A DNA stretch of 64,000 bases. Origin: an uncultured Acidimicrobiia bacterium. Its GTDB lineage: Bacteria > Acidobacteriota > Terriglobia > Versatilivoradales > Versatilivoraceae. Position 1 is the stretch's first letter, and each line of letters begins with the position of its first letter. Both the position numbers and the translations under genes were made by a program. Shown one piece after another: positions 2,293-55,516 of this stretch. The stretch spans positions 224,001-288,000 of the forward strand of contig CAWBAT010000008.1 of the NCBI GenBank assembly GCA_963786955.1, read 5' to 3'. The notes beneath the pieces were generated by a model. That model saw nothing but the letters and a program-made list of their open reading frames with translations, did no database searches and had not been told where the DNA came from.

Positions 2293-2529
2293 ATGACTAA
2301 GAGGAAGATGATCTATCGAGGGAAGTTACGGGTGAACGAAACCTTTCAGAGCCAGCTAAAAAAAATCAACACTGGAATGAACCAGAAACTTAGAAGTCGG
2401 CAGCGGTGGTTCAGCGTCGTGACAATTACAGCGTTTATCTATGGGCTGCTCGGCATCGGATTTTTCCTCGCATTTCATCCTCTCCAATCTGCAATCCCCA
2501 GTTTTACTCTCCCCGCTCCATCGAAATAA
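2293..2529 (+). CDS. Possible small membrane protein
   Basis: 78-aa ORF with one hydrophobic segment (WFSVVTITAFIYGLLGIGFFLAF) after a basic stretch; convergent with and slightly overlapping the FG-GAP gene. No family recognised. Confidence 0.3.
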   Translation: MTKRKMIYRGKLRVNETFQSQLKKINTGMNQKLRSRQRWFSVVTITAFIYGLLGIGFFLAFHPLQSAIPSFTLPAPSK

Positions 2530-5182
2530 AGGCGCCGTCGTCGCTCCGCACGCCAGGTGATCCCCCATCATTGATGACACCGTAGGCGATAAATGGATTG
2601 GATCCGCTGACCCGTGTAATTCGCGCATATCCTTGAGTTGTACCAGGAGCCTTAGAGAGTATCGACGAAATCTGCATCCACTGCTTGGCGGCCAGCGTGA
2701 TATCTTTTAAGGTTTGAACTTTTTCTCCTTTTTCACCGTCAAAAAGCTCGACACGAAATACATCCGCAGAATCATCGATCTCACCGGTATTGATAAGAGC
2801 AAGATTTGTCCGATTTTCTGAATTCTGTTGCAGCCCATAGATCCAAGCCGTGGAGTTGGCAGTTAGACCTTCAGGCACAGCAAAATAAAAAAGACCATAG
2901 TATCCGTCTCCCCCAGGCGCCGCTGTGCGTGCGCTCAAAAACATGCCTGTCGCGTCCGCTACCAGGCCAGCCTCGACCATTGCAAACAAGGATCCTGCGT
3001 AAGTTGGTCCAGCCGCCCCAATCCCCGGGGTCTCTTTCGAACGCAGAAACTGGACAAAATTGGGAATGATCTGTTGCTCCAGTGGCTGAAGTTCAACCTG
3101 ATATTTTGCAGTAGAATTTGGGGCCTGAATCGCGTCCGCCACATAGGAGAGATTCAATTTCCTGCTAATGGTCGTAAGGTTGGTTACCACAACTTCCGTC
3201 TTGAACACCGGAGTTTCGACGACAACAGGGAGTGTCAGCCGGTTAACCGCATATTGAAAGATTGCTGTCATCGGCGGAATAAAGGAACCGTCAGAGGTTG
3301 TCTGGTCATTGATCACAGCATAGGCAAAGTAGGGTGCAGTGGCCGATTGTTCCGTGGGTTGAACTTTCACCATGCCTTGACTCAAGGAAAGCCCATTTGA
3401 AATGAGAATATTGCTGATCTGTTTGAATTCTCCCGGCGCCAGGGTTACGTCCGGGAGTACCTGTGTTAATGGATTCTTGGGGTCTCCCGAAATAACCGTG
3501 AGACGTAGAGTAATGCTGGGATCTGCAGATGTCCCTGCATGCAAGACCGCCACATTGCTCCGATCCTGATTGTTCTGCCTGAGGCCACACAGATAAATCG
3601 ACTCTCGGAGAAAAGGCAGGGAAGCATGAATATCCGGGTAGGCAAGTCCGGCACGTCCCTCCTGCGTTTTTGTCGTTGTCCTCACGGTGACGGCGACGTC
3701 CGAGGGGGAGGAAAGCTGTTTGAATTGGGCGGCCAAGGTTCCGCCTCGATCACCCGAGTCAGGAACTGGAATGCCGATGGTTTTTAGCCATGAAATGACG
3801 TCCGGGATAATCAGTTGTTTGCCTGCATCCACCATTCTGCCGCCTGTGCCGCCGCCACCGCCGAAGGAGGGGGTATAGGTGAGCCGCATATCGGTGGCCG
3901 TGGTTCCCCGATTGGTGATCGTCATTTCTGAAGTATAAAAAGAATTGTTCTGTCCTGAGACAGAGAGAACGATTGGGACCACGGTGTTGACTACGCTCGT
4001 GGTGTTCAACAATAAATTGACTTTGTTGAAATTGCTAAGGGCCACAGCCAGGTCCGGTTTTCCGTCGGCGTTTAGATCCCCGACGGCAATCCCCTGCGGT
4101 TTTGAAGCACTCAGGAGGGGAACTCTACCTCTACGTCCTGAGAACCCCCCACGTCCGTCACCCGTCAGTAGAGACAAAGTAGACGAACTCGAATTGGTCA
4201 ACACCAGGTCGAGGTTGCCGTCAAGGTCAAGATCCACGGCAGCGAAGTTGCCCAGAGTCTCACCGGAACTTGCCGGTTGATCTCGCTTGGGGAAGAAGCT
4301 CCCATCGCCTTTCCCGAGGAAAATGGACACAGTTGTTTCTCCCATAGTGGCAAGGTCGGTCTTCTGATCTCCATTGAAGTCGGCAGACAGAATCCAAAGA
4401 GGGTCGGTCGAAGTTGCCAAATCATTCCTCTTTCCGAACTTGCCGGTTCCGTCACCTAGGAGTATTGTGATCTTATCGTTTTCAACGCAGGCTGCAGCCA
4501 AATCCAGCTTATTATCCCCGTTCAAGTCGGCGGCAACGAGCCCAACCGGGTTCACTTCAACGGCAAAATCTGCCTTGGGGCCGAAGGTCCCATTTCCAGT
4601 TCCCAGGAAAACTGATACGGAATTTGCCCCATAATTGCTGACCGCCAGGTCGAGCTTCTGATCGCCATTGAAGTCTCCAGTAACCAGGACCGCTGGATTG
4701 GCGGCGGTCTCAATTTCCGTGGTGTTCTGAAAGAAAAAATCTCCTTTGCCAATTAGAACCGATATTGTATTGGAACCCAAATTTGAAGCTGCCAAATCCA
4801 GCTTGCCATCTCCATTAAAATCTCCAACTACAAGTCCTGCGGTGACTAAGCCTGTTGTGGTCTCGCCAAAGACACCTCCAAAACCTCCGTAACTTCCGGG
4901 CAGGATTGCGACAGTCCCCTGTGCAGTCGTACTGGTCCCCGGCTCAGCACCCGGGTTAGCCACCGCTAAGTCTAAATAGCCATCCCCATTGAAATCGCCC
5001 GTTACCACTGAATAAGTGAAATTGCCCGTATTGACGGCGGATACTGTGGATACTTGGGAGTTGTCAAAAGTGACCCATTGTGCTGCAAGGATTGAAGAAA
5101 ACACAAGAAGGAATAAAAGTAGAATCAGCCCGATGATTGAGATGCGGGCTAACTTTCGCACATGCGAAACTTTAGGGTTCAT
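2504..5182 (-). CDS. Secreted FG-GAP/VCBS-repeat protein with a conserved C-terminal ~500-aa module
   Basis: Signal-like N-terminus (RISIIGLILLLFLLVFSSILAA); about seven 'GDFNGDGxLDLAV' repeats; C-terminal module homologous to those of the proteins at 46559 and 51472. GGAGG RBS precedes the ATG at 5182. Confidence 0.9.
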   Translation of the reverse strand: MNPKVSHVRKLARISIIGLILLLFLLVFSSILAAQWVTFDNSQVSTVSAVNTGNFTYSVVTGDFNGDGYLDLAVANPGAEPGTSTTAQGTVAILPGSYGGFGGVFGETTTGLVTAGLVVGDFNGDGKLDLAASNLGSNTISVLIGKGDFFFQNTTEIETAANPAVLVTGDFNGDQKLDLAVSNYGANSVSVFLGTGNGTFGPKADFAVEVNPVGLVAADLNGDNKLDLAAACVENDKITILLGDGTGKFGKRNDLATSTDPLWILSADFNGDQKTDLATMGETTVSIFLGKGDGSFFPKRDQPASSGETLGNFAAVDLDLDGNLDLVLTNSSSSTLSLLTGDGRGGFSGRRGRVPLLSASKPQGIAVGDLNADGKPDLAVALSNFNKVNLLLNTTSVVNTVVPIVLSVSGQNNSFYTSEMTITNRGTTATDMRLTYTPSFGGGGGTGGRMVDAGKQLIIPDVISWLKTIGIPVPDSGDRGGTLAAQFKQLSSPSDVAVTVRTTTKTQEGRAGLAYPDIHASLPFLRESIYLCGLRQNNQDRSNVAVLHAGTSADPSITLRLTVISGDPKNPLTQVLPDVTLAPGEFKQISNILISNGLSLSQGMVKVQPTEQSATAPYFAYAVINDQTTSDGSFIPPMTAIFQYAVNRLTLPVVVETPVFKTEVVVTNLTTISRKLNLSYVADAIQAPNSTAKYQVELQPLEQQIIPNFVQFLRSKETPGIGAAGPTYAGSLFAMVEAGLVADATGMFLSARTAAPGGDGYYGLFYFAVPEGLTANSTAWIYGLQQNSENRTNLALINTGEIDDSADVFRVELFDGEKGEKVQTLKDITLAAKQWMQISSILSKAPGTTQGYARITRVSGSNPFIAYGVINDGGSPGVRSDDGAFISMERGE

Positions 5183-5805
5183 TGTCTTGCCCTCCTTTTC
5201 CAAAAGGCCCTCAGCGCCTTGGTGCAAAGCAGAACTCGGTGAGGCTGAGAAAATCGCACTGGGGTATGACAAAATCCACAGGGGTACAAAGAGTGGCTGG
5301 AGGTCGTGTGACAAGACCAATCCAGTCTTTGGGTCTGAATCGAGAAGGCAGGCGGAGAGCGCCAAAAATCAACGATAAATTCTTTCTGGAAATTTTCTTG
5401 TTGAGAGAAACTTTCGGAGGGACTTGAACGCAGGCAACTGCCGAGCTGGTTAAGATCGAGAAAGGGACGGGAAACGGGATACATGAGCACCCCCCGAGCC
5501 TTCATCGGGTCCCGATAGGCCCTGAAAGCCCCCTCCCCTTATAAAGGTTATGCTATACCTCTCCTTCTAATCCTTCAAGATCTGGCAAAAGTTTTTTTAT
5601 TCAGCGATGGCTAGAACAAGAAGTCTTTGATCATCATAGGGATAGTGAGCGGTCCCAATTATGAATGGGTTGTGAACGACCACTCGGACCCGAAACTTAG
5701 AGGCCATCATTCGAATTTCTCCGGATGGGGTGCACACTCTGCAGAAGGAATACGGATGCCTTAGGTCCCAGCGCTGAGGGCCTTTTTCGAGGCGTGGATG
5801 TGTTC

Positions 5806-5967
5806 ATTGCAAATTTCGGAATGCGGATTGCGAATTGGAAAAGAGATCGTCGGGCTCATACTCGTTTCGACCCGCTGGTTTTCTGGCCGGGACAACGAGC
5901 TTCGCTGGGCTCTCAAGTCTTGAGGGGTAAGTCAAATCCGAAATCGACGATCCGAAATCCGAAATTC
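5806..5967. repeat. Inverted arms of heptamer-type repeats (TTTCGGA/TGCGGAT ... ATCCGAAA) around a ~100-bp core
   Basis: Left 'atttcggaatgcggattgcgaatt', right 'aaatccgaaatcgacgatccgaaatccgaaattc'. Confidence 0.6.
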
Positions 5968-10418: not shown

Positions 10419-12800
10419 TTACACCGCCGCAATCTCGATCCATTCGATCAGGGCACCGCCGGTGGCCTTTTCCCGGACAGGCAGCCGTAGTCTTCCATTT
10501 TGCACAATCTGCGGTCTGTTTTCCTTTCCGCCGCCAAAGTAATGCTCAGTAACCACAACGGATAGTACTTCTCCAGTTCGCTTTAATATGAGTTCTCCTT
10601 CGCCGAAGGGAACTACAGCCAGGTGGGAGGCTCTCTCAATCCCTTGATTAGTCTTTGAAGCGACCACTACAGACGTGTTGCTTTCGATGAGATCGCGAAA
10701 CTTTCCGGCTCCCTTACGTCCATCGAGGCGGCGCTCCCGTAGGGCTACCAGCATCACTTCACCGTTCTCAAGGCGGGCCCAGGAGGAGGTATGGGCCCCA
10801 CGGGCTGGCCCCTGACATTCGCCGTCAATCAGGACCGGGGAAAACACATTGGAATAGCGGATCGCATGGGTAAGACCATTGAATTTGGCTACCCGCTCAG
10901 GTGTGGCAAGCGCTCTGGGCTCCGGTCCAGAAAAACTGGTGAGATTCCCGAGCGTTCCAATTGCCGCCGAGTCAAACCAGATTTCAGGGGCGGTGAGCCA
11001 TTCATAACCGCTTGAGCCCCAGGTGGGCATCCCAATCTCGCCCAACAAACTGCTAAAGAAAAATCGACGGTTGGCTTCCAGATCGAAATCCCCCGCACAA
11101 AAGCCCAGGTCATCCGGGCTATGTAAGTCGAAATAATCAATGAAAAGAGGGGAGAGAGAATAGTACATTACTACAATGTCAGGATTTTCTTCCCGCATGG
11201 CGCCCACCACCACTTCCATTGCCTTAAGTAAGATCCGCTCGCCGGCCCAGTACATGTCCTTTGGTGCAGCCGCTGCCAGGGAAGGGAGTTCATATCCAAA
11301 ATCAAATTTGATGAATTCCGGCTGATAACGACGGACAAACTCTCTTGCCAGCTTCCGCAAGACCTGCTGGACCTCGGCTTGCGTGCAATCCATGATGTAG
11401 AAAGGTTTGTCGGTAATGACGTCTTTTCCAATCATGAACGGCTGGCCATCTTCCAAACGCAACATATTGGCGGTGGTCAGCCCCAATGCTTCAGGGTTGC
11501 TGCAGCGCATGAAAGCAGCCCAAAGCCCAATCAGATGTCCTTCCGAACGAATGCGGGCGAGAGTCTCTTTAAAATGGGGGAATCGTTCTGTCGAATGGAG
11601 CAAGTCTCCATAATTTCCCTCCCAGTACCCATCGATCACAAACATCTTTACGTTCATCCTCGACCGTTTCATCCCTTCGTAAATCGATAACAACATAGGT
11701 TCGTCGAATCGGTCAGGTGGCATTTGGCCCCGTCCAAATTGTTCTCCCCAGGTATCGAAGGAAGGTGCCAAGGCCGCCGCGTTCTTCCTCTCGGAATTGG
11801 TTTTCTTCTGGATAATACCTGCCTTAACGAGTGCTAGATAATACTGGCGAATGGCTTCGTAAAAATTAGGACCCACGGTCCAACACAACTTTGCCCCCAA
11901 AGACAATCGCCCCGGACCACGCAGGTGTCCCCATAGGTCGCTGCGATAGCTCAGAATTGGACCGTAATGGTTGTGGGCAGTCTCAAACAGATGGTCTGCA
12001 TTAGGAACCTCAGCCAGACCGCAACAGAAGGCGTTGAGCAGTTCTTGGGGAGGAACATTCTCGATTCTAATGGGCGGACTTTTCTGGAAATCAAACGGAG
12101 AGCGATGATATCCGCAAAAATAGTGAGCAGGGAGTCCCCAGGCCTGAATCTGTAACACCTTGGGATCACCGGTCCATCCACGCCCCAGCCAACAAATTTG
12201 GTTAACGTTTAAACCGATCTCCCCGGTTGGGATAATTGGACTCATGACCGAGGCTGAACTGACGCCGGGCAGAACCACATAGTCACTTTCCATTGATGGT
12301 CGCGCCTGCTCTCCAGCTCCTTCAGCAAAGTAATGCAGCGCGACCACATCCTCGGCGGCGGTACTTTCATAAACCAGCGGGTCAAGCCAGAAAACGTCAT
12401 GATCAAAACGCCAGGTAACTGACAATTTGGCTGTGCCGTTCAGTCCCTCGTATCCAATGGTCAAAGTATTGCCTTGCAGGTTGTATCCGGACGACTTCCC
12501 TGAACTGCAGCGGCGAACTCCCTTTTGCCCCACAGGCTGGACGACCACTGCAGGTTGCAAGGTCCCTTTTGCGATCAGAAGGCCGCGTTGATCGAGCAGA
12601 CGAAACTGATCGGATTCTTGTGACCACTCCCAGGTGTACTGATCCCCCTTCACCTCGATGCCCTTTCCCGTATCTATGATTCTGGGTTGAGAAGCTGCAG
12701 CCTGTTGCAGAGTCACTGTCGAGAGCAAACAGGTTGCCGTTGAAGTTTTAATGAATTCACGTCGGGATAAAGACCACATGGCAGCTGAATCCTCCTTCAT
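10419..12800 (-). CDS. Tat-exported clan GH-D-like (GH36/GH27/GH31-related) TIM-barrel protein
   Basis: Twin-arginine 'SRREFIK'; 'SFDTWG', 'FVIDGYW', 'ERFPHF', 'GLWAAF', 'FIKFDFGY'; paralogue of 20632..22911. Confidence 0.75.
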   Translation of the reverse strand: MKEDSAAMWSLSRREFIKTSTATCLLSTVTLQQAAASQPRIIDTGKGIEVKGDQYTWEWSQESDQFRLLDQRGLLIAKGTLQPAVVVQPVGQKGVRRCSSGKSSGYNLQGNTLTIGYEGLNGTAKLSVTWRFDHDVFWLDPLVYESTAAEDVVALHYFAEGAGEQARPSMESDYVVLPGVSSASVMSPIIPTGEIGLNVNQICWLGRGWTGDPKVLQIQAWGLPAHYFCGYHRSPFDFQKSPPIRIENVPPQELLNAFCCGLAEVPNADHLFETAHNHYGPILSYRSDLWGHLRGPGRLSLGAKLCWTVGPNFYEAIRQYYLALVKAGIIQKKTNSERKNAAALAPSFDTWGEQFGRGQMPPDRFDEPMLLSIYEGMKRSRMNVKMFVIDGYWEGNYGDLLHSTERFPHFKETLARIRSEGHLIGLWAAFMRCSNPEALGLTTANMLRLEDGQPFMIGKDVITDKPFYIMDCTQAEVQQVLRKLAREFVRRYQPEFIKFDFGYELPSLAAAAPKDMYWAGERILLKAMEVVVGAMREENPDIVVMYYSLSPLFIDYFDLHSPDDLGFCAGDFDLEANRRFFFSSLLGEIGMPTWGSSGYEWLTAPEIWFDSAAIGTLGNLTSFSGPEPRALATPERVAKFNGLTHAIRYSNVFSPVLIDGECQGPARGAHTSSWARLENGEVMLVALRERRLDGRKGAGKFRDLIESNTSVVVASKTNQGIERASHLAVVPFGEGELILKRTGEVLSVVVTEHYFGGGKENRPQIVQNGRLRLPVREKATGGALIEWIEIAAV

Positions 12801-13308: not shown

Positions 13309-15285
13309 TCACAAACTCCTTCGATACTTCACTGGCTTGCCCTCGTAGGATGGTTTGCATAGGTTCTCTTCAATCCAACCGATCTGCATTCTTGTTTCTT
13401 TGCGCTTTTCAAACAGGTCCATGATCCCTTTCAATTGCTGCGGATTCATTTCTGAAATCCCGATGTCATCTCCAAAAGCGCCGTTTGAGATGGCGACGGG
13501 CACATCAAAAGTCTCCACGGCATACTGCGTGAACCGAAAATTGCTCACGGGAGCCCAGTTGCAGGACCAGAGAACATTCCGGAAATTGGGAAAAAGCCCA
13601 TAAGGCCAAGCCTCCGGCCGGCATCCGCTGTCCTGATATGTTCCGTGAGCGACCAGTCCGTAGGGGGCTTTCTGGTTCCAACCGCGCACGCCAATGACAT
13701 CGGAGGCCAGAAAAGCGAGTTGTGAGTTGGAATTGCCGGTTACTGTCGAGAGTTCTTTAACAAGAGTCATCATGGCCCGATCGGCATAGCCGGGATAAGC
13801 GTTAGTGCCCAGCTCTCCGGGATTGATGTAAAAGGTTTCGTCCCAAATCAATCCATCCAGTTCTGTCCCATATTCCGAAATCAATGCTTGCAGATAACTC
13901 CTGTAGAAATCTCTCACAGCCGGATGTAACGGGGACTGCTGGTAAGTTTTTCCTTTCGTGTCAGGACCTTTCCATCCTCCCTGGGTCAAGATCGTGCTCG
14001 GGTCGTAAATGTCCTTGGCCCCGGTGCAGGCACACAGGCCATCGGCGAAATACAATCCAACGCGAAATCCTTTCGCCTTCGCGAATTGGATGCGCCGATG
14101 CATTTCGGAAAGAGACATCTCCACCGGCCGCATCTTACTCACCGAACGCTTGTGCCAATAATGTTCGGTCCACTCTTCCGGGGCCTCACCGTAAGCCTGG
14201 ACATCGGGGTCCAATGCGCTCGGAAATGCCACCCAGCGTTTGTCGAGGGTTTTCTTGCGATGATCAAAACTGTATCTTCCGACCACATCGTACCAGCCGT
14301 GCAGTGCAAGAAAGACCTTCGCTCTGTCCTTACGCGGGATCAATTCCTCGAGTTGGTTAATATCAGCGAACCACCCCTCGCCATTCTTGCTCAGGTAGTC
14401 ATAATCGACCATGGCCACGTCATGCAACCAGTCGGGTCCTTGTTTTACGTCCTCGAGGGAGCATTCGTAAAAGACACTCATAGCCTTTTGGGTGTCACCG
14501 AAATGCAGTCCCGTCGACAGAACTCGCTTTTCAATGCCTTGAATCCCGACAGAGCTGGGATAAATGCAGTGGAATTGGCCGATCCTGTCTCCGAAAGGCA
14601 GGGAAAAATAAGAAGAGAAGTATGGATCGGCACTTAAGGTTAAATGAAGATCCGTTTGGTCTGCGTATTCATCGACCATCGGAATGGCTAGCGCCTGGGG
14701 TTTCCCCCCTTCGAACTCACCGGCTAATTGGAAAAGGTATTCATCCTCGTTATCAAAATTCCCAATTTGTTGCCGATGGCCAATTCCGTTTTTTAAAGGG
14801 AGAAAGACTTTTCTATCAGGGAAGGGAAGCTGAAGATTGCGCGGAAATATAAGCTTTACCCTCTCGCTAATTTTGGTGGGTGCGTTGATTTTGACTGTCT
14901 GCCTTAGATTGGCTGAACCCTCCTTCAAGGGGAGGAGCTCGATTTCATAGTCCACGGAAAACGTGAAACGATCGGAAAAGGAATATTGGAAAATCAGCTT
15001 CGAGCCTTCACGATGCGACGCATTAGGTTGATTGCAAATGTAATATTTCTTGCCAATAAACAAGATGCGCGGATGGTTATCTCCCAGCTTGCGGTTGATG
15101 AGCTCGATCTTGCCATCCTGCAGGGAAACGACGTCCCCGGTTGGACCCACCTTCAACTGCCATCCATTTCTTTCAAGTGTCTCCGTCGCGTACAGTGAGG
15201 AGATTCCAGAAACAAAAGGAGCGGTGACCGTTAATGCCGCTGAGGTTCCAAGAATTTCCACGAATTCTCTTCTTCCGAGTTTCAT
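13309..15285 (-). CDS. Tat-exported hypothetical protein, putative TIM-barrel glycoside hydrolase of unassigned family
   Basis: 'GRREFVE' Tat motif; 'GFRVGLYFAD', 'PLHPAVRDFY', 'LDGLIWDE' resemble (beta/alpha)8 GH strands; located in the GH cluster. Confidence 0.6.
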   Translation of the reverse strand: MKLGRREFVEILGTSAALTVTAPFVSGISSLYATETLERNGWQLKVGPTGDVVSLQDGKIELINRKLGDNHPRILFIGKKYYICNQPNASHREGSKLIFQYSFSDRFTFSVDYEIELLPLKEGSANLRQTVKINAPTKISERVKLIFPRNLQLPFPDRKVFLPLKNGIGHRQQIGNFDNEDEYLFQLAGEFEGGKPQALAIPMVDEYADQTDLHLTLSADPYFSSYFSLPFGDRIGQFHCIYPSSVGIQGIEKRVLSTGLHFGDTQKAMSVFYECSLEDVKQGPDWLHDVAMVDYDYLSKNGEGWFADINQLEELIPRKDRAKVFLALHGWYDVVGRYSFDHRKKTLDKRWVAFPSALDPDVQAYGEAPEEWTEHYWHKRSVSKMRPVEMSLSEMHRRIQFAKAKGFRVGLYFADGLCACTGAKDIYDPSTILTQGGWKGPDTKGKTYQQSPLHPAVRDFYRSYLQALISEYGTELDGLIWDETFYINPGELGTNAYPGYADRAMMTLVKELSTVTGNSNSQLAFLASDVIGVRGWNQKAPYGLVAHGTYQDSGCRPEAWPYGLFPNFRNVLWSCNWAPVSNFRFTQYAVETFDVPVAISNGAFGDDIGISEMNPQQLKGIMDLFEKRKETRMQIGWIEENLCKPSYEGKPVKYRRSL

Positions 15286-15308: not shown

Positions 15309-17889
15309 TCAACTGGACCAGCTCTGCTTTGCACCATCCCAGCTGCAGTTGAGTTCTCTTGTTGAGGATCCTCTGGCTGCCGCTATCTCAGGGGTCCATT
15401 CAGCCACTCGAACATTTTGTCCGTCCGATTGAGCGGCGATTAGCTCCAGCCGCTGAGGTACAAACCACAGGCCTTCGTCGGGAGTGATTAGGCTCACACG
15501 GGGAGGAGTTGGAGGGAAGTTTGCCCTGGAGATAACCGAGATCAAAGGTGCCAAAGGCACTAGAGACCTGACCGACCTTTTTCCCGTCGGCATGAACAGA
15601 CACGACTCCCCATTCACCCACCTGTGTTCCTTCGACCCTGAGGAAGAATGCTTTGGCCGCGCTGATTGAGGGCCGTTCTCCCCGCCTGCTTTTTGTTAGC
15701 TCGGCTTGGGGAAAAAGACGTTCACGCAGACGGTCAATTCGTTGGGCGTCTGCATCCTCCAACGCTGGCTCGAGTCCCTTCCCAACGACGAGTACTGAGG
15801 CGCTTCCGTGGTGAGTGATTTCTACCCGGGCTTCAGACATATCTTGTTTCAACGAAGCCCGATAAACAGGGCCATCTGCAGAATACACATGCGCCCAGTT
15901 CAGTGCGGCTCCGTCCTGGACTCGAAGCGAGACAGCAACGGTTTCGGTTGTCGGAATTCGCCGACTGAGAAATTGAACTCGCGAAGTGACCGGGACAACG
16001 TAATTCCCGTCACCGTTGACATACAAATTGACATCATTTGCGCCAGTGGCAGTCACGCAATGAGGTAAGAGGACTTGTTCTTTCCCGAGCAATGTTGAGA
16101 ACAGTGGCGCGTAGATCTCCAGCAAATCGGCGGCACGCTTATCTGGGGGCTGCTGGCAGATCGGATATTCGTGGGCAATCATGTGCGGAAAGATAGCGAA
16201 TTGAAGCCGCCGCTTGAGCTGAGCTTCAAACTGAAACAAGTCTCCATGATAATTCTTGCGAAAGTTCCAGGCGGAAACGGGACGATACGGCGCCAGATAC
16301 GATAAGGCGGGAAGAAATTCGATTTCGTAGCAATACCCATCGACATCGCGAAGGACCTCGATTCGATAGGAGTGGTTGATGAATACCCTTTTCCCAGCCT
16401 CATGATTGATGCGGCAGAATTCCTGTACAATCTCAGCCATGGGTACGGCCATGCTGGCAATCGGCTTCTCCCCGATCATCGTCAATCCGTCATCGTGGCC
16501 GTAATCATAGATGCTGCACCAATCCAGCCGGTCGATCACGAATCCCTGCAGCTCCGGCAGACGTTTCATATGCCCGCGCACTTGCTCCAGCAGATACGCG
16601 AAGAAGCCGTAGCGACGATCCGGATTCATGACCTTGACCCCTTCCCATGAGATAATATCCTGGCCGTGCTTGTCCTTTGCCTTGGCGTTGGGGAACAGGC
16701 TATTCCGAATTTGTTCAATTCTGGGTGAGTCGCCACGCTCCTCTATGCCGTCGTAGGTGCCCGGGCCTCCGAATTCGTTCAGGGCCATGTGCGCAAAGAC
16801 TCCCACACCCTGGGTATCCATTTTCTGGATAAACGTGCGGATCTTATCGTCGTTCATCATCTCGCCGAAGCGCCACCAGTGGTTGTAGCTATAGGGCTTC
16901 CATTCTTTTTCCTCCGGCAAGTACTCCCCACAGTGCGTGAACCAAGGGAAGGTCCAGATGTAGCGGATATGCTGCCGCGTCATCTCTTCCAAGGGGGGAT
17001 GGTCTTGGACGTGATGATAGTAGAAGGCCCCTTCGTAGGGGCTGCGTGGCAACGTCGGGCGGAAGTATCTGGGAAAATCATCACTGTAGGCTTTGAGGAC
17101 GCTGCGATAATCCGCCGCATGGGTGTAGAATAAGAGTTTCAGTGGAGAGACCCGGCCACCTCCCATTCCCCGGTGGGCCAGCGTCAGGCGCAAGGTCTTG
17201 CTATCTCTCCAGCTCACTTGAAGATGAGGAATCTGAACGTCAGCTGGGAGGGCGATCGTTAGGGCGCTGTCTCGTTTTGCGTCAAAGATGCTCACCAGAG
17301 GCAGAACGTAGTAAGCGTGAATGACTTCCCAGGATAAACCGTAGGTAGCATAGGGAGCATGCTTGAATGTGGGATAATCGCTGACCTGCATGACTCCCCG
17401 ATTACTGGGGGTAAAAACCTGAGCTGTTGGGGAGAGCACTGGAAGTTCCAGGATGACTTCATGGGCTGCACGTTGTCCATCTCCCACGAAGTTCAGTTCC
17501 CAAGCGAGTCCGCCGGAAGTGGCTGTCCAGAGTTGCGAGACCTCAAGAGAAAGGGGTTCCAGCCTCGCACCGACAATCACTCCTTGAGGGGTTTCCTTGA
17601 CGTGAACCTGTGTGAACGATGCAGTATGGTTGGTCGCTTCATTGCGAACCGTAAGACTCATGGGGCTGCTTAGCCATGACCTTTCAGTCCGGCCCGACCG
17701 AGTCTCAATGTGACTGAGCAAACTAGTCAACGGGTCAATACCTACTTTGATATCTTTCCCCTCATGCCAGACGAGATCTCTTGAATGGCTGTCTTTTTTT
17801 TCGGGCATCGTCTTTTCCTGGGCCCAAGTCTTGGTAGACGGGAACGGGAAGATCATGAAAACGACTAAGAAAAAGGTTCGCAAGCTCAT
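15309..17889 (-). CDS. Secreted hypothetical protein, putative TIM-barrel glycoside hydrolase; probable frameshift near 15510
   Basis: Signal peptide (MSLRTFFLVVFMIFPFPSTKTWA); 'GVGVFAHMALNEFG', 'LQGFVIDRLD', 'GKRVFIN'. ORF 15400..17889 appears to continue in the 15309..15617 frame. Confidence 0.6.
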
Positions 17890-31356: not shown

Positions 31357-31530
31357 GTAAATAGTGTATTGGCAATAGACCTCTCTTGAGCAAGCTTTAA
31401 ATGAAGTGACCTTGGAGTAAAGTGACGAGATAGCACGGGAGTCATTTTGAAAATTATTTCGGCGCTCAAAAGCACTCGCTACCGGTCGTAGAATTTGTCA
31501 TTTACACCTCCAAATTGGAGAGGAGTTCTT

Positions 31531-37215: not shown

Positions 37216-37353
37216 AAGCTAGCTTTCCTTACATCATCAAGACGAGATCTCCCATCCATCCACCACGTCCATTCTGCATACCTCCCCCAACCTGGGAGAG
37301 GAATGCAATAATAAATCCTCGGCTCCCCTCCCCAACACAGATGAGGAGGAACA

Positions 37354-38265: not shown

Positions 38266-38503
38266 AGATTCCTCCGGGTCATAGAATATGGACAACTCGC
38301 AGGCTGGGGCGGGCATAACCCTTATAGTGAGTCCTCGAGGGACAACCTCTGAGTATAGGGGTTGGGGGTGAGGGGGGGTGCTAGGCTGCGGGGGGTATTC
38401 TAACTGCTCTCTTCCTCCATTGAAGTCAAACGGCGGTGGGTTCATTGGTAACAAAGACCGTGCAAGATGCTCGCACCCAGTGGCTTTTTCCATGCATCCT
38501 TGC
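38266..38503 (-). ncRNA. Non-coding left end of the IS110, candidate bridge-RNA region
   Basis: ~240 nt between the photolyase stop and the transposase start, with nested stems (TGGGT..ACCCA enclosing GCGAG/CTTGC and GGT/ACC). The position matches IS621-type elements; function is inferred. Confidence 0.4.
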
Positions 38504-41659: not shown

Positions 41660-42169
41660 TCAGTCAAACTCCGGCAGGTTATCGCCTTGCCCGTTGATGA
41701 CATAATCAATGGCGCGCTCGATGCTTCTCTCATTCCATAAATATCGCTTGCTGCCCTTGTCCGCCCAAGGAGTCTGTTGTGAAAGCCAATGGCCGTCCTG
41801 GCGCAATTGCCTCGTAGCGTTTGCCTTGAAAGCATTCAGGGCGTGCTCAGGTCGTGCTTTTCCGATAGCGACAACTACGTGCACGTGGTTTGTGCGTACG
41901 TTAATCGCATGCATGACCCAGTTGCGTAAAGTACAGGTTTCGCGCACAGCTGTCTCGACCGATTCGCGTTGGGCCGCATTCAAGGACACAGTTTCGCATT
42001 TGAGGGCCTGTGCATTATGTCGACGCCAGCGTTCGTTGGGTGGAATGGTCGGGGCCTGATATTGGTTGTGGAAACGGTCCACCGACCCCCGCCCGTCGCC
42101 ATGCAACCAGGTGCCGTAACAACGGAACGTGATGAGAAAGGCTAAGGGGAGGTTGGTGTTGTTCCACAT
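41660..42169 (-). mobile_element. REP-associated tyrosine transposase (RAYT, HUH Y1/IS200-like)
   Basis: 169 aa; 'FLITFRCYGTWLHGD', HUH 'NHVHVVV', catalytic helix 'AIDYVINGQ'; flanked by inverted REP arrays. Confidence 0.85.
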
Positions 42170-46558: not shown

Positions 46559-49500
46559 CTATTGACTGCTGCCGATAAAAGCCCCATCGCCCGTCCGTTG
46601 CCCTGGACCGGCGCCATCATTGATCACCGCATAAGTGACGAACGGGTTGTTGCCCGCTGTACGGCGCACGCGGGCGTAGCCTTGTTGTACCCCTCCCGGG
46701 GCGCTATTCAGAATCGTCCCGATCTGAGTCCAGCCATGAGCCTTGAGGACAATGGGCTCCATGGTTTTCTTTAACGTTCCTGTCGCCCCATCATAAAGAT
46801 CGATGACAAAGGTGTCATCGTTGGCATCGGTTTCGCCGGTGTTTACAATCGCCAGATTGGTCCGGTTTTCAGAATTCTGCTGCAATCCGAACACCCAGGC
46901 GCTCGTGGTCGAAGCCTGGCCATACGGCACCGCAGTATAAAAGAGTCCAAAACGGCCGCCCACGGTTCCTCCTGCCGCGGAAGTCCGTGCCCCTAAGACC
47001 ACTCCGCTGATATCTCCGCCCGTGGCCGTGGCGAACAAGAGCTCCGGCAATCGTGGTGCCCGCCGCTCCAATGCCAGCTACCGCATTGCTTCTCATGTAG
47101 GCAAAAATGTCCGGAATGATCTGCTGCCGCCCGGCTGGGATGTTAATACTAAAGTGAGCCGTCTTATCCGCAGTCGTAATGGCATCGGCCACAAAGCTGA
47201 AGTTAACAGTGCGAGCCTGGCTGGAAAAGTTGGCCAAAACCACCTCACTGATGAAGGTGGTGGTCTGAACTATGACCGGCAAAGTCAATCCAGTCACGGC
47301 TGACGTGCTGGCGGGTTGAGGAGTCAGAAATGAACCATCCGAATTGACCTGATCATTGACGACACCGTAGGCGTAGTAAGGGGCGGTGCCGCTGGTCCGC
47401 TCCACTTTCACATATCCGTTCGTCAAGGAGAGGCCATTCGATGCGAGCACGCCGCTGATCTGATTAAAGGCTCCTGGCTCCAGGACAATCAGAGGCAAGA
47501 CTTGGGAGAAGGAACTGTTGCCATCGAAGACAGTGACTCGCAAGGTAATGCTCCCGGCCCCTGCAGCTCCCGCGTTTTGGAAAGCCACATTGGAACGGTC
47601 GGTGGTATTCTGCCGCAATCCACAGATATATGAAGTAGTGGTTAGAGCCGCGCTGTATGGTGTTCGCGGATTCAGCCAGCCCGGCGCGGTTTAGTTGAAT
47701 TCCCACCACTGTCTTTCCCTTGGCTGATAGCCGCCGCGCCGCCGTTGGAGACGGTTATGCCTGGATAGGCCAGCCCGGAGCGGCCTATTAGGTTCCCACC
47801 GGTATCCTTGACCAGTGTCGTGGTTCGGGCGGTGATGCTGGCATCTGAAGCCAAACTGAGATTAGAAAAATGAGCTCGCAAGGTCCCAACCCTGCTTCCC
47901 GTGTCCGGTATCGAGAGCCCTTTGGTCTTCAGATAGTCAATGGCATTCGAAAACACAGACTGGCCTGGAGGAAGGGTTGTCGATGCGGTTCCAGTGCCTC
48001 CGCCAGCGGTCGCTGTGTAACTCAGATCAACGTTAGCCGTGGAGGTTCCCAGGATGGTGAAGGTCAGCTCCGTGGTAAAGAACGAGCCACCGACTCCACT
48101 GCTGGAAAGCACGACGGGCACGAACAGGTCAGTTGAAACGCCACCGCCGCCGCCACCCCCGCCTCCACCGCCTGAGGTTGAGATCGTGAAGTTGCCGTTG
48201 CTGGTATCGGAAACCGTTCCAGCGGCGTCGCTAACGCGTATTTTAACGGTGGTGGAAGCTGAATTGGGGACCGTCCAACTGTAGCTGCCCGTGTTCGACG
48301 TGGAAGCGACGATAGTCGAGTAACTGGTTCCGCCGTCGGTGGAAATTTCGATTTTGACGTTGCTAACCGTTCCGGTAGTCGTCCAGGTAATGTTATGGCT
48401 GGACCCGACCACCCAATTTTCACCGCCATTGGGAGAACTCACTGTAACGGTTGCAGAGCCTCCACCGCCCCCTCCTCCACCACCTCCACCACCGCCGGTG
48501 CCTGTGTAGATAAAGATGCCCTGGTTTGCTGCATACACAGTCGCGTGATCGGCATGGCTCACGTCGATTTCAGTAGCAGAGAATGGCAATCCGGACTGAG
48601 CGATGGTCCATGTCCCCGCAGCATCAGAAGTCCGCAAGACGAATCCGTCTACGATCGCAAAGAGAACAGAGGGTGTCGTGGGATCAATTGCTATGTTGTT
48701 GGCGCTGATCAAAAACGGAAAGGGACAATTGAGTGGGCTGCCCGCATAGTGGATGTTTCCGAAGCCTGGGTCTGAATAATTCTTGATCAGCTGCTCGATT
48801 CCGGAAGTGGTGTTTTGCCAGAAGCCGCTATCGTCGAGTTTGTATATACCTCCGTTGGCTGTGGAAGAAGCGACCAAAGAAGCATAGACATTGGAAGAAT
48901 CGATAGGGTCGACGGCAAGGTCGAAAACACCTAGCGTATTGGGCAATCCGGCTCCCAAAGGACTCCAACTCAATCCACTGTTGGTGCTCTTGTAGATCAA
49001 GGCCGGGACCGAGACTCCCGAGTATAAGCCTGCATAGAGAACTGCCGGGACCTTAGGGTCGACAGCTAGCGTATTAACGACCGCACCACCACCCAAAGGC
49101 AACCCTGTAACGGAAGAATTCCAGGTCGAGCCAGCATCGGTGCTGTGGTAGATCTGGGTATAGGCTACAGCATAGATCCCATTGGGATCCACCGGGTCAG
49201 GCACGAGCACCGTGGGAGCAATAAATCCAAAATTGTCCGCGGGGGTTGTAGTGAGCGTCCAACTGCTGCCCCCATTGGTGGATTTGTAAATCCCAGGCAA
49301 TGAAAACGTAAAGCCTCCACCTAAATCCTGCACCGTGGCATTCTGAATCGACACGTAAAGGATCCGATTACCCACCTGGCTCATCGCCAATCCTCTTACC
49401 ATCAGGCCCTGCAAGCCTGCATTTTTTGCGGTCCAGTTGTTTCCACCGTCGGTACTCTGAAAAACTCCCTCTCCAAACAAACCGGCGAAAATCGTGTTCT

Positions 49501-50695
49501 TGTTGGATGCATCTAGTGCCATGTATTGGACCAGGGCTTTGATTCCTGTGTTTTTGAGGGCCCAGCTCGTCCCAGAATTTGTGCTCTTCAGCACACCGTT
49601 TGCCAGGGTTCCGGTATATAACGTGGCAGAGTTGGTAGGATCGACCTCGATGACGAGAGCACCGAAATCTGAATTACCCAGGTCGACAGCGTTCCATTGA
49701 CCTCCGCCATTCGTGCTCTTGTAGAGAACACCAAGAGCGTTCGTGCTTGACGTTGCGATCACATACACATTGCTTGGTGTCAGGGGGTCGACAACCGGAT
49801 CCGTCAAATTCACTCCGCTAATGCCAGTATTCGAAAGTTGCCACTGCCCGCCGCTGTTTGTGCTCTTGTAGACGGCATCCGCCACAGTGATGTAGAGCGT
49901 AGCGGTCGTCTTCGGGTCAATCACCGGAGTTCCCAGAGCCTGCCCACCGGGCAAACCCGTACCGGCGGAGCTCCAAGTGCCGCCACCGTCCGTGCTTTTC
50001 TGGAGCCCGGTTGTCGTACTGGCGTACAGAATGCTACTGTTGGTGGGATCAACTGCCAAAGCGTAAGCTTTCCAAGTTAGTTTCGTCCAAGTCGTTCCTC
50101 CGTTGGTACTCTTGATGACGTAATAGTCCAGTGTCGTGCCGACCTTTGTAATTACGGGGGCATAGAGCGTGCTGCTGTTCTTGGGATCGATCACCAACGA
50201 CTTGGTTCCATCGCCGCAAGGGAGCTTCGTGTCCAGAATGGTCCAGTTCGCTCCTGCATCGGTACTCTTGATGACATTGCCGTTGCCAATGTAGAGCGTA
50301 TTGTGGTTGGCGGGATCGATCAGGATTTTGGAAGCGCCTAAATACACGTTCAGGTTAATCCAGTTATTTCCGCCATTGGTGGTTCTATAGATTCCCGCAT
50401 AATTTGACAGGTAAATAATGTTGTGGTCCGTGCGGTCAACGGTGATCTGAGCAACATATCCACCCTCCGGACCATTTCGGGCGGTCCAGTCAAGGGCAAC
50501 CGCTGTCTGGGAGAAACCAGCTGTAAAAATCCCCCAAAGAATCACTGCACAAGAGAGCCAAGAAATTAAGAATTCGTTGTCGCTTTTCTGATTCCAAGTG
50601 TTGTCTTCGTCACGGTGATTTCTCCTGTTCATCTTTACATGGGGTACGGAATGCGACATGCTTCCACATTCCGGTGTAATCGTCTCATTGCTCAT
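46559..50695 (-). CDS. Large secreted BNR/Asp-box beta-propeller protein + Ig-like 'SPNGGE' domain + conserved C-terminal module; frameshifts near 47700 and 47040
   Basis: Many 'KSTNGGxxW' Asp-boxes and 'DP.NS..LY' repeats; poly-Gly linkers; ORFs 47672..50695, 46869..47618 and 46559..47071 are colinear with the paralogue at 51472. Confidence 0.88.
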
Positions 50696-50700
50696 TTGTT

Positions 50701-51102
50701 GTAGCCGGGGCCGTTGGCCCCGGACAACAGGCCTGGAGGCCTGCTACTACTGTCTTGTGTGGCGACAGGGGTCCACGCCTGTCGTGCGCTGTTACCAATG
50801 TCACTTGTAGCCGGGGCCGTTGCACCCGGACGACCGGCCAGAGGTCTGCTACTACAGCCTTGTGTGGCGACAGGCGTCCACGTCTGTCGTACGTTGTTAC
50901 CAATGTCACTTGTAGCCGGGGCCGTTGGCCCCGGGATAACAGGCCAGAGGCCTGCTACTACAGTGTTGTGTGGCGACAGAGGTCCACGCCTGTCGCGCGT
51001 TGTTGCCAATGTCAGCCGCAGGCCGGGGCCGTTGGCCCCGGGATAACAGGCCAGAGGCCTGCTACTACAGTCTTGTGTGGCGACAGAGGTCCACGCCTGT
51101 CG
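50701..51102. repeat. BIME-like array: four ~105-bp units, each with three different REP hairpins
   Basis: Units at about 50701, 50807, 50912 and 51019: GTAG-CCGGGGCC-GTT-GGCCCCGG; CAGGCC-AGA-GGCCTG-CTAC; GTGG-CGACAG...CTGTCG. Confidence 0.9.
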
Positions 51103-51471
51103 TGAATTGTTTCAAAGGGGTACTAATACAACGCATCAAAAAGGCGTCGCAATCCCGCTTTGTTAGCCACGCTGAGCTAAGCGAGGCGTGGGTGATTCGT
51201 AAAAATCCATGATGCGGTTGTATTAGTTTCCCACCGCTCGGCAGCAACCGTCTATATCATCTGCTATCAGAACATGGCTTGCCTAGTCAGTGCTCCGCCC
51301 TCTCTCAAAGCCCAGTCCTCAAGATATGGACTGTGGGGGACGATACGACCGTGATGAGGCTTCACTATGAAGTTGCGCAAAAAGAGCTCAAAAACCGTCA
51401 GCAAATACGAGCAAGATTCATTCTCCCTTGAAAGGAAGACGGCTTCATCCGCAATACGGCTGACAGGAGGA

Positions 51472-54400
51472 TCATTGACTGCTGCCAATATAGGCGCCAT
51501 CTCCCGTCCGTTGTCCTGGACCGGCGCCATCATTGATCACCGCATAAGTGATGAACGGGTTGTTCCCCGCTGTACGCCGGACCTGGGCGTATCCTTGTTG
51601 CACTCCCGGGGCGCTATTCAGAATCGCGCCGATCTGAATCCAGCCGTGAGCCTTGAGGGTGACGGGATCCATGGTTTTGACGAGGTTTCCGGTAGCCCCA
51701 TCATAAAGATCGATGACAAAGGTATCGCTATTGGCATCGGTTTCGCCGGTATTCACAATCGCCAGATTGGTGCGGTTTTCCGCATTTTGCTGCAGTCCAA
51801 ACACCCAGGCGCTCGTGGTAGATGCCTGGACATTCGGCACGGCCGTGTAAAAGAGCCCGAAACGTCCGCCCGCACTACCGCCTGATGCAGAGGTTCGAGC
51901 GGCCAAGACCACGCCGCTCAAGTCACCACCCGTAACCGTGGCGAACAAGGCTCCGGCAATCGTGGTTCCCGCCGAGCCTATCCCGGCCACTGAATTACTT
52001 CTCAAGTAGGCAAAGATGTCCGGAATGATCTGCTGCCGCCCGGCCGGGATGTTAATGCTAAATTGGGCCGTCTTGTCCGCTGTCGTGATGGCATCGGCGA
52101 CAAAGGTAAAGTTGACGGTTCGTGCCTGACTGGAGAAGTTGGTCAAGTCCAATTCACTGATGAAGGCACTTGTCTGGACAATAACTGGCAAGGTTAATCC
52201 AGCCACGGGGGTAGTTTCGCCTGGCTGAGGGCTCACGAAAGAACCGTCGGAATTGACCTGATCATTGATGACTCCATAAGCATAGTAAGGAGCTGTGCCG
52301 GCAATTTGCTCCACTTTCACATATCCGTTCGTCAAGGATAGACCATTCGATGCGAGCACGCCGCTGATCTGATTAAAGCCGCCTGGCTCCAGGACGATTG
52401 AAGGCAAGACCTGGGAAGAGGAACTGTTTCCATCGAAAACTGTGACTTTCAAGGTAATGCTCCCCGCTCCTGCAGCCCCCGCGTTTTGGAAAGCCACGTT
52501 GGAACGATCGGTGGCATTCTGGCGCAAACCACAGATATATGAAGTAGTGGTTAGAGCCGTGCCGTATGGAGTTCCTGTTTCAGCCAGCCCGGCGCGGTTT
52601 AGTTGATTCCCACCAATGTCCTTCCCTTGGCTGATGGCCGCGGCACCGCCATTGGAGATGGATATGGCTGGATAAGCCAGCCCGGAGCGACCGATAAGGG
52701 TTCCTCCACTGTCTTTGACTTCCGTGGTGAGGCGGGCCGTGATGCTGGCGTCGCTGGCCGAGCTGAGATTAGAAAAATGAGCTCGCAAGGTCCCAACCCT
52801 GCTTCCCGTGTCGGGTATCGAGAGTCCTATGGTCTTCAGATAGTCAATGGCATTCGAAAACACAGACTGGCCACGTGGAAGGGTTGTCGATGCGGTTCCA
52901 CTTCCACCACCAGCGGTCGCCGTGTAACTTAGGTCAACATTAGCGGTTAAGGTGCCACGGTTCGTAAAAGTCAACTCCGTCGTAAAGAATGAGCCACCGA
53001 TTCCGCTGCTGGAAAGCACGACTGGTACAAACAGATCGGTTGAAACGCCACCGCCCCCACCGCCTGAGGTTGAGATCGTAAAATTGCCATTGCTGGTGTC
53101 GAAAATTGATCCATCATCGTTGCTGATGCGAATCTTAACGGTGGCAGAAGCCGAGCTGGGGACCGCCCAACTGTAGCTGCCTGTATTCGACGTGGAAGCG
53201 ACGATGGTCGAGTAACTGGTTCCGCCATCGGTGGAGATCTCGATTTTGACATTGTCAATTGTTCCGGTATTCGTCCAGGTAATGTTATGGCTGGACCCGA
53301 CCACCCAGTTTTCGCCGCCATTAGGAGAAGTCACAGTGACGGTTGCAGTGCTGCCGCCCCCCTCCTCCGCCTCCGCTCCCACCGGTGCCGGTATAGACCC
53401 AGATCCCTTGGTTAGCTACGTAAGCTGCCGTGCGATCGGCTAGGCTGATCCCAATTTGAAAGGGGGAAAACGGCAAACCGGAGTGAGCAACTGCCCAGGT
53501 GCCGGCTCCATCCGTGGTGCGGAGAACAAATCCATCCACGACCGCAAAAAGAGTAGCCGGAGTATTAGAGTCGATAGCTAAATTGGATGCGGTGGTTAAG
53601 AATGGGGTCGGGCAATTCGGTATAGCGCCAGCATAATGAATATTGTCATATTGCGTAAGAGCGTAGTCGGTAATCAGCGGTTTGATTTCGGAGGTAGTGT
53701 CTTGCCAGCTTCCGCCGCTATCGATGCTTTTGAAAACTCCGCCATTCACGGTAATCGAAGAAAGGACCGCTGCATAAATGGTCGAAGAAGTTTTGGGATC
53801 GATGGCTAGGTCATAGATACCTAGCAAGTTGGGCAGTCCCGTAGACGAAGGATACCACATGATGCCGCCATCGGTGCTCTTATAGAGAGAGTTACCGGAT
53901 GTAGAGTCATATAAACCCAAGTACAAAACCATCGGATTCTTGGGATCAATGGCGAGACTGTTCAAGAAAGCGTTGTCGGGCACGCCATTTCTAGAAGTAA
54001 ACCAAGTAGTACCTCCATCGGTGGTACGGTACACGCCGGCAATACCCAGCGCATAGATCCCATTCGGGTTGACCGGGTCTGCAACGATTTTTGTCGGAGC
54101 AGATGAAAGAAAGTTATCCGGGGGGATGATGGTGGCTGTCCAGGTTGCCCCGCCATCGTTGGATTTAAAGATGCCCGGTAGCGAACCACCCGTACTTGGA
54201 GTAACGGCGTTATTGACGGAGGCCCAGAGAGTATGGCTTCCGACCGGACTGATGGCCAGAGCCGCGACCTGTTGACTTCCCAATCCCGCATTGCGCGAAA
54301 CCCAATTGTTGCCACCGTCAGTACTTCGAAAAACACCGAAATCGGGGATGCCTATATAGATTATGTTCTTGTCGGTGGGATCCAATGCCATATATTGGAT

Positions 54401-55516
54401 CAGCGCCTTGAGGCCGCTGTTCTTGGCATCCCAGCTAGTTCCGCTATTGACGCTCTTAAACACGCCATGACGGAGGGTGCCTGCATAAAGATTAACAGGG
54501 TTGGAAGGGGCTAGAGCGACAACCTGCACATCCTCACTCGGAGAGCTAACATAGATAGGATTCCACTGCCCCCCGCCATCGATCGTTTTGTAGATGATTT
54601 CGGGGGCGTTGCTGAGAGTGACTCCTCCCCTTACAATGACATACAAATTATTGGGACTGAGCGGATCAATAATCAGATTTTCGGCCTTCAGACCGCTAAA
54701 GGTTTCCCACCCATTGCTGGAAATTTTCCATTGCCCACCGCTATTGGCACTTTTATAGACTGCACCGTCAGCGACTATATAAAGATTGCTGGGGGTCTTG
54801 GGATCGATCACCACGGCTCCGAAATTGGTAGTGTCCAGCCCGGTTCCGGAAGGATTCCACGTTACCCCACCGTCGGTACTCTTCATCAGACCTGCTGTCG
54901 TGCTGGCATACAGATTGTTGCTGTTTGTCGGATCGATCGCCAGAGCGTGCGCTTTCCAGCTTAGCTGATTCCAACTTACCTGATTCCAACTGGTGCCCCC
55001 ATTGGTGCTCTTGATCACGTAGTAATCCACCGTCGTGCCCACCTTGGTGACGATGTTGGCATAGAGGGTACTTGAATTCTTAGGATCTATGACCAAAGTT
55101 TTGGCACCATCCCCGCAAGGGAGCTTAAGATCGAGAATCGTCCAATTGGCGCCTGCATCCATGCTTTTGAAAATATTGCCACCCACTTCATAAATGGTCG
55201 TATGGTTGGTTGGATCGAGGAGGATTTTCGAAGTCCCAAAGTTGGCATGGAGATCAGTCCAGCTTGTACCGCCATCGGTGGTCTTAAAGATTCCTCCAGC
55301 GTAATTGGCCAAATACGCAGTATTGGGATCAGTATAGTCCACTGCGATCTGAGCAACATATCCGCCCTCCGGGCCGTTTCGGGCAGTCCAGTCAAGGGCA
55401 ACCGCTGCCTGCGGGGAAACAGCTGTAATAATCCCCCACAGGAGCACTGGAATAGAGAGCCAAGAAATCGAATGACTCGGTGTAGGTTTCAAGGTTCCGC
55501 CTGTGGTATTTATCAA
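51472..55516 (-). CDS. Tandem paralogue: BNR beta-propeller + 'SPNGGE' Ig-like domain + conserved C-terminal module; frameshift near 53360 in the Gly linker
   Basis: ORFs 53321..55516 and 51472..53382; same 'ALDWTARNGPEGG' mature start and 'GQRTGDGA.IGSSQ' end as the 46559 gene. Confidence 0.88.

Follow-up and report, generated by a model that had tools for sequence, protein, structure and literature searches.

A duplicated four-domain tail on secreted acidobacterial proteins is very probably an uncatalogued branch of the ASRAH/DUF5719 superfamily

Introduction

The closest described relatives of the protein tail treated here are the ASRAH domains, exemplified by TM1070 (1NC7) and ASRT (2II7, PF07100), and the tails annotated as DUF5719 (PF18986). 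The tail in question is a module of about 490 amino acids that ends three secreted proteins encoded in a 64,000-nucleotide stretch of DNA, hereafter the window (contig CAWBAT010000008.1, positions 224,001 to 288,000 of the forward strand, assembly GCA_963786955.1), from an uncultured bacterium of the Versatilivoraceae (Acidobacteriota, Terriglobia). An earlier inspection of the letters and open reading frames (ORFs), the sequence-only reading, had described this tail as one constant module behind interchangeable N-terminal cargo and proposed it as a candidate for surface display or sorting.

ASRAH domains were first put forward as small-molecule binders. De Souza, Iyer and Aravind predicted in 2009 that they bind sugars, in a cleft on one face of a sheet whose walls are partly made by the dimer interface; solo ASRAH proteins are tetramers, and on cell-surface proteins extracellular forms come in dyads or tetrads. 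Conserved in the domain are an aromatic residue (Trp) at strand 1 and an Asn closing strand 2 (for all these points, PMC2739507). In the searchable literature this was the only relevant paper, and none on the module itself was found.

The shared module and its internal duplication

The module is found in three genes, all on the minus strand, as are all features of these genes described below. Copy 1 (P0001, 491 amino acids; 2507..3979) ends the FG-GAP protein and has the domain order A-B-A-B. Copy 2 (46562..48121) ends the BNR2 protein and is interrupted by three single-base insertions, and copy 3 (P0002, 518 amino acids; 51475..53028) ends BNR3 and carries an insertion of ~27 amino acids between domains A1 and B1. 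The tails of the FG-GAP protein and BNR3 share 46% identity over 523 columns (BLASTP, E 1e-149), and the pieces of the BNR2 tail are 79–87% identical to BNR3. No Pfam or NCBIfam match was obtained on the shared tail of the window proteins, i.e. no curated model reaches its cut-off there.

Within the module, BLASTP yields off-diagonal alignments of 27–28% identity (E 8e-19 and 3e-14), and a profile comparison of residues 1–245 with residues 246–491 gives a probability of 100% (hhalign, E 1.4e-44, 229 columns). Both results show that the module is an internal duplication, so that the coordinates, colinearity and tandem repeat described by the sequence-only reading are borne out. When the four parts are compared by hhalign, A1 is related to A2 (99.3%, E 4e-20) and B1 to B2 (99.9%, E 1.2e-31), and no relation between A and B is detectable (at most 4.4%). 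The A-B-A-B arrangement arose by duplication of an A-B unit.

In the FG-GAP copy, domain A1 (3626..3979, module residues 1–118) is a beta-sandwich that includes a single short helix and lacks a clear match among solved structures. It is followed by B1 (3251..3625, residues 119–243), a TM1070/ASRT-like sandwich with the motifs CGLRQN..DRSNVA and YAVINDQ..SDGSF, by the A-type domain A2 (2876..3250, residues 244–368), and by B2 (2507..2875, residues 369–491), a second TM1070/ASRT-like sandwich with WIYGLQQN.ENRTNLA and YGVINDG...DDGAF. The motifs picked out earlier by eye (CGLRQN..DRSNVA, GLQQN.ENRTNLA and YxVIND...DG) are thus present in the translations. In an alignment of 40 module sequences 34 columns are invariant, among them D230, G231, S232 and D481. 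Conservation of polar residues is highest in strands 1 and 2 of each B domain, where the motif is [YW]xxGL[RQ]QNxx[DN]R[ST]N[VL]A, and at the loop that closes the domain, NDx(3-8)DG.

The parent proteins agree in position with the ORFs given by the sequence-only reading. The FG-GAP protein gene (2504..5182) encodes 892 amino acids from an ATG at 5182. The mechanical ORF (2504..5365) reaches a TTG at 5365; the ATG is the likely start, and the 892-residue form is also present in a public collection (P0003, 100% identity). BNR3, a secreted Asp-box/Sortilin-type propeller protein, is encoded by 51472..55516 in two frames (53321..55516 and 51472..53382), and its paralogue BNR2 by 46559..50695 in three (47672..50695, 46869..47618 and 46559..47071); the two genes are 83% identical over 1973 nucleotides (nt).

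The N-terminal cargo differs among them, as had been stated: Pfam finds FG-GAP_3 (E 9.7e-46) in one protein and Sortilin-Vps10/BNR in the other two (E 2e-27 and 6.7e-21). In the FG-GAP protein the FG-GAP/VCBS repeat region that forms the propeller cargo spans 4001..5020 (approximate borders; six FG-GAP_3 and five FG-GAP stretches in Pfam). The N-terminus of this protein (5081..5182) is signal-peptide-like, with a basic stretch, a hydrophobic core and ...LAAQ in the translation; the signal-like N-termini of the window proteins were judged by eye and by a crude hydrophobicity rule. The module of BNR3 is preceded by an immunoglobulin (Ig)-like spacer (53113..53328) that resembles Kre9_KNH at E 1.4e-4 and 23 bits, under the Pfam cut-off of 24.6. 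The window proteins end in ...DGAFISMERGE and ...DGAYIGSSQ, with no hydrophobic stretch at the C-terminus.

Predicted structure

The AlphaFold2 model of the module, calculated from a 40-row alignment, is all-beta, with a predicted local distance difference test score (pLDDT) of 93.8 and a predicted template modelling score (pTM) of 0.91. It contains the four beta-sandwiches that the sequence-only reading had guessed, in the order A-B-A-B. For a single half modelled alone the scores are 81.0 and 0.62, respectively; as the half models worse than the whole, the two halves seem to pack together. The best explanation of the predicted models is that the module would be a compact, rigid and autonomous extracellular unit of four beta-sandwiches.

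Searched as a whole against the PDB with Foldseek, the 491-residue model matches generic multi-Ig chains (alpha-2-macroglobulin, complement C5 and transglutaminase 2), with template modelling (TM) scores of at most 0.16. The B domains superpose on TM1070 (1NC7) as an eight-stranded beta-sandwich over the whole domain, at an identity of 12%.

Relation to ASRAH and DUF5719

The sequence-only reading could place the module in no named family; the B domains have the TM1070/ASRT fold, and the module profile is homologous to a tail annotated as DUF5719. The nearest labelled clusters in a language-model Atlas are likewise DUF5719 and ASRT. By direct search the two families are scarcely visible: PF07100 gives no match up to E 10 on 11 module proteins and the window proteins, and PF18986 gives none on the window copies and reaches 17.8 and 20.8 bits (cut-off 26.2) on 2 of 11 relatives. 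DUF5719 is also absent from the 25 families listed for 40 members of the module alignment.

The link is made by profile comparison. Against 20 DUF5719-annotated acidobacterial tails, the module profile scores 97.0% (hhalign, E 8.1e-11, 317 columns), and against a single protein of the same genome (C5:1316037-1317629) 71% (E 3.7e-5). The latter passes the PF18986 cut-off (30.5 bits at C5:1316691-1317434) and consists of a signal peptide, domains of FN3 and purple-acid-phosphatase-N type, and a tail with both domain types. Its relatives form a second large family of acidobacterial tails, annotated as DUF5719 by the sources; PF07100/ASRT is annotated in only 2 of 120 listed proteins of this sister family. 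About ten loci of the genome encode the sister tail, which has four domains in the order B-A-B-A. In the hhalign alignment, B1-A2-B2 of the module pairs with domains 1 to 3 of the sister tail, and the order is thus shifted between the two (A-B-A-B in the module, B-A-B-A in the sister). Our guess is that the lipoprotein family of actinobacteria described in the 2009 ASRAH paper is DUF5719.

With respect to the conserved ASRAH residues, W379 of the module is invariant and aligned with Y129, and it would fall on the ASRAH Trp when placed by motif spacing. Placed in the same way, the consensus NLALVN / NVAxQN strand ends in Asn, with His in B1 of the FG-GAP copy.

Distribution

The genome holds nine module loci, the three of the window and six elsewhere, so the module is not restricted to the three genes first noticed. 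The six comprise a 1633-residue protein with Ig-like and BACON domains (C6:957914-962815), an SBBP-type fragment, a signal-plus-module protein that continues for ~90 residues after the module (C8:610220), and three loci broken by frame shifts or stops, which encode a further Asp-box propeller protein, a LamG protein and a matrixin-type protease. Identity among paralogues is kept at about 50%. A HMMER search of 1.84 billion representative proteins returned 1444 at E ≤0.001 and 730 at E ≤1e-30.

Each of the 24 genomes sampled from the same family has module matches, up to 39 in closed genomes, in line with the many paralogues per genome that had been predicted. Ten other families of the class, represented by 16 genomes, gave none, and when 300 more genomes were sampled evenly across the phylum, the module was found only in three that belong to a single genus and, weakly, in one more. 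The related records are labelled Candidatus Versatilivorator/Versatilivoraceae (Candidatus Versatilivorator being placed by NCBI in Acidobacteriota, Terriglobia), Terriglobia, Thermoanaerobaculia, Holophagales and Acidimicrobiia, the last probably mislabelled. Two or three module genes are held by 16 of the 72 loci with a called module gene, and tandem paralogues such as BNR2/BNR3 are therefore usual.

In three genomes of a second family (G132, G191 and G282), some proteins match only module residues 1–105 and 345–487, repeated several times in one open frame. These partial repeats show that A and B can be arranged otherwise than in the fixed A-B-A-B order.

Position, partners and gene context

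Among the 150 best representatives the module is C-terminal in 112, N-terminal behind a leader in 27, internal in 9 and the only domain in 2, and these 2 calls are due to a second weak stretch that widened the span (one is the C-terminal FG-GAP protein of the window). The 36 N-terminal or internal cases depart from the expectation that it would always be C-terminal. Natural proteins made of a signal plus the module do exist (P0188 and P0202). A hydrophobic N-terminal stretch is present, by the crude rule, in 100 of the 132 representatives that start with M (9/132 for a control stretch), and most relatives thus have the signal-like starts that were anticipated.

The claim of diverse cargo holds: in a Pfam scan of 80 of the best representatives there are more than 20 kinds of partner domain. 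They include propellers and repeats (FG-GAP, Sortilin/BNR, Kelch, SBBP with DUF7948, NHL and LRR), other domains (BACON, TIG, HYDIN-type Ig, CARDB, DUF11, PKD and LamG) and enzymes (reprolysin, M64, S8, trypsin and FGE-sulfatase). Peptidase domains occur in 8 of the 80, no catalytic Pfam domain of a glycoside hydrolase, lyase or esterase was found in any of them, and 23 have no Pfam match outside the module. No Pfam family listed for these 80 relatives models the module itself, and in one of them a P_proprotein match lies between two module stretches.

Co-occurring partner genes had also been expected, and none recurs at 78 loci searched over 6 kb on each side, where 434 neighbouring ORFs fall into 345 clusters. 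The commonest cluster, a receptor with CarboxypepD_reg and an OMP beta-barrel, is found at 9 of the 78 loci; such receptors are common in genomes of this kind.

One paralogue lies in a locus (L017, G000:C6:951000-970000) that looks like a surface-polysaccharide locus. The 1633-residue module protein is there surrounded by glycosyltransferase genes: GT4-type domains are found in four of these, one of which has GT2 as well, and a fifth has GT2. A GNAT gene, an M28 peptidase gene and two TIG/LamG proteins belong to the same locus. The N-terminus of this paralogue was at one time considered glycoside-hydrolase-like; the assignment was dropped, as Pfam shows only Ig-like and BACON domains. A stand-alone copy of the module is located 4.5 kb from a Wzy_C gene. 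The genome, which is 93% complete, has one PEP-CTERM match (elsewhere) and no match to Por_Secre_tail or SLH.

Sequence quality and other features of the window

The frame breaks in BNR3 and BNR2 are not mentioned in the sequence-only reading. The frame shift in BNR3 sits in a G-rich (GGN)n linker (about 53321–53382). BNR2 has three single-base insertions relative to BNR3, near 47693–47705, 47666–47668 and 47037–47041. The extra bases are absent from short-read contigs of four public sediment metagenome runs (all four runs at 47037, three at 47666/47668 and two at 47698/47705); these contigs belong to related strains, 90–95% alike, and cannot prove that the breaks of this assembly are errors. 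At least four further genes of the window are split into two overlapping frames: an HMGL-like enzyme (835–2137), a GH38 mannosidase-type enzyme (24076–26617), a phosphate-type porin (31495–32839) and a thiamine-pyrophosphate (TPP) enzyme (59815–60868), a pattern suggestive of numerous single-base indel errors in the assembly. Given the related contigs and the other split genes, the breaks in BNR2 and BNR3 are probably assembly indels, and all three module genes are therefore treated as functional.

The gap between BNR3 and BNR2 contains four tandem units of ~106 nt (window 50699–51134), each with the 22-nt palindrome CGACAGnnGTCCACGyCTGTCG, which occurs 4 times in the window (0 expected) and 18 times in the genome. 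The units look like an intergenic hairpin element of the REP (repetitive extragenic palindrome) kind, and there is no Rfam match in the window, these units included.

Glycoside hydrolase genes (GH36/melibiase, GH2, GH31 and two of GH38 type) are clustered at window positions 8141–30686, and three large ORFs without a Pfam match (10419–12800, 13309–15285 and 15400–17889) belong to this cluster. An IS110-family (DEDD) transposase gene (37237–38493) and an IS200-like Y1 transposase gene (41660–42169) are both located between sulfate/ABC transport genes and the BNR pair.

Discussion

The module is a real, large and uncatalogued branch of a known superfamily, for which the fold is known and the function is inferred. 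Its assignment, in fold and family, to a diverged branch of ASRAH/DUF5719 is very probable. As to function, anchoring or docking through glycan binding is a fair but putative reading.

We favour the reading that the module binds glycan and so tethers the proteases, propellers and LRR proteins that carry it, and would give this reading as a whole about an even chance. The proteins would be exported by Sec, and the two B domains would pair within the chain, in the manner of ASRAH domains in dimers. The polar motif of strands 1 and 2, together with the closing NDx(3-8)DG loop, may form a putative glycan- or cation-binding site. Through it the module would bind one common polysaccharide, most likely of the cell's own envelope or matrix, and so keep the fused propellers, LRR arrays, proteases and Ig stalks at the polymer; it would act in the way of an SLH or LysM anchor, not as a secretion signal. 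That the ligand is indeed a polymer of the cell itself is a tentative suggestion, on the doubtful side. Equally tentative is the wider proposal that four-sandwich modules of ASRAH type (A-B-A-B, with the DUF5719-type sister) are the general surface-display device of the lineage, a lectin-like cassette that would bind a lineage-specific envelope or matrix glycan, hold dozens of exoproteins per cell, and fill the place of the SLH, PEP-CTERM or T9SS (type IX secretion system) tags of other phyla. Weak support for a tether is given by the glycosyltransferase and Wzy_C context and by the near absence of the usual tags from the genome, as compared with nine module loci and about ten sister loci.

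Several points weigh against this picture. The fold match of the B domains rests on predicted models, Pfam ASRT and DUF5719 stay below cut-off on the window copies, and searches of PDB sequences with the module (hmmsearch with its hidden Markov model, and phmmer) found nothing real. The mapping of the motif on the ASRAH pocket is a reading of spacing, not a residue-level structural alignment. We found no binding experiment on the module, on DUF5719 or on ASRAH domains of extracellular proteins, and sugar binding by ASRAH is itself a prediction of 2009 (PMC2739507). The glycosyltransferase context concerns one or two of the nine paralogues and has no control; as no neighbouring gene recurs, the context says little either way.

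It is unlikely that the tail is a substrate-targeting carbohydrate-binding module (CBM), which would bind plant, fungal or foreign microbial polysaccharide and bring the proteins to their food. None of the 80 scanned partners has a catalytic domain of a glycoside hydrolase or lyase, most being non-catalytic binding scaffolds, the glycoside hydrolase genes of the window lack the module, and the CBM rows of the structural comparison score within the range of common arrangements. A general tether fits better than a CBM, because binding scaffolds and proteases make up most of the partners, and because the module keeps ~50% identity among paralogues, is confined to few lineages and is found at either end of the protein.

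That the module is a protein-protein scaffold, which oligomerises and builds or docks on an S-layer-like surface lattice, we consider improbable. The tetrameric state of solo ASRAH proteins (TM1070 included) and the part of the dimer interface in the cleft walls, as described in PMC2739507, are compatible with such a role, and so are the compact model (pTM 0.91) and the conserved surface that many paralogues have in common (34 columns invariant among 40 sequences). The two B domains of a chain may, however, already satisfy the dimer interface, and no recurring lattice or partner gene was found near the 78 loci.

The chance seems similarly small that the NDx(3-8)DG loops and the R/N motifs bind a small molecule or a cation only to rigidify the proteins, with no targeting. 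The invariant polar and acidic residues D230, G231, S232 and D481 would suit a stabiliser of this kind, as would the original view of ASRAH domains as small-molecule binders (PMC2739507), but a structural role leaves unexplained why a fixed four-domain cassette, kept at ~50% identity, is moved whole to either end of proteins.

Very improbable, finally, is the sorting or secretion signal read by a dedicated export or attachment machine, for which the extreme C-terminal position in 112 of the 150 best representatives, the signal-like starts and the scarcity of classic tags in the genome could be cited, and with it the likening to T9SS and PEP-CTERM tags in the sequence-only reading: the module occupies the N-terminus in 27 and an internal position in 9 of these 150, exists in stand-alone signal-plus-module proteins, is followed by ~90 residues in the C8:610220 paralogue, has neither a hydrophobic/basic C-terminal tail nor a match to a tag model, is accompanied by no recurring machine or partner gene at the 78 loci and, at ~490 residues, is several times the size that known tags are generally taken to have.

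Acidobacteriota are among the most abundant bacteria of soils and sediments, and, to our knowledge, it is not known how they keep their very numerous secreted proteins on the cell surface. In one family the module occurs at as many as about 39 places in a genome, all missed by curated models. Its membership of ASRAH/DUF5719 gives an annotation handle for thousands of tails now called hypothetical (1444 clusters at 50% identity) and leads to the testable idea of one common glycan ligand. Should the ligand prove to be a polymer of the producing cell, the module could be used as a display tag for proteins of uncultured lineages, and if the surface-display reading is true, it would be the first role assigned to DUF5719-type domains. 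With the fold known and the function inferred, we consider the value of the result moderate.

Comparison with known systems

With the DUF5719 (PF18986) tails the module shares the two domain types, the length of ~440–490 residues, the place on secreted multidomain proteins, and the lineage and genome; it differs in that the window copies stay below the Pfam cut-off and the domain order is shifted. With ASRAH proteins (TM1070 1NC7, ASRT 2II7, PF07100) it has in common the occurrence of more than one such domain per chain, extracellular ASRAH members being dyads or tetrads and the module having two B domains. TM1070 and ASRT are small, cytoplasmic and stand-alone, whereas the module is part of secreted fusions, each of its B domains follows an unrelated A sandwich, and where the ASRT signature has H and C, the module has other residues, apparently R and A.

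The T9SS C-terminal domain (CTD) and the PEP-CTERM/exosortase system resemble the module in the usual C-terminal position on large secreted proteins of adhesin-like and protease type. There is, in contrast, no Por_Secre_tail match in the module proteins or in the genome, 36 of the 150 best representatives are not C-terminal, and the module has neither the transmembrane or basic tail of the PEP type nor a match to its model. The module is also about five times larger than the T9SS and PEP-CTERM tags.

SLH, LysM and choline-binding repeats are unrelated to the module in fold and sequence, SLH has no match in the module or in the genome, and the host of the module is a diderm bacterium of the Acidobacteriota. 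By analogy, though, it is these systems that the module resembles in architecture: one constant module is carried by unrelated exported proteins, at either end of the chain and with no sorting enzyme.

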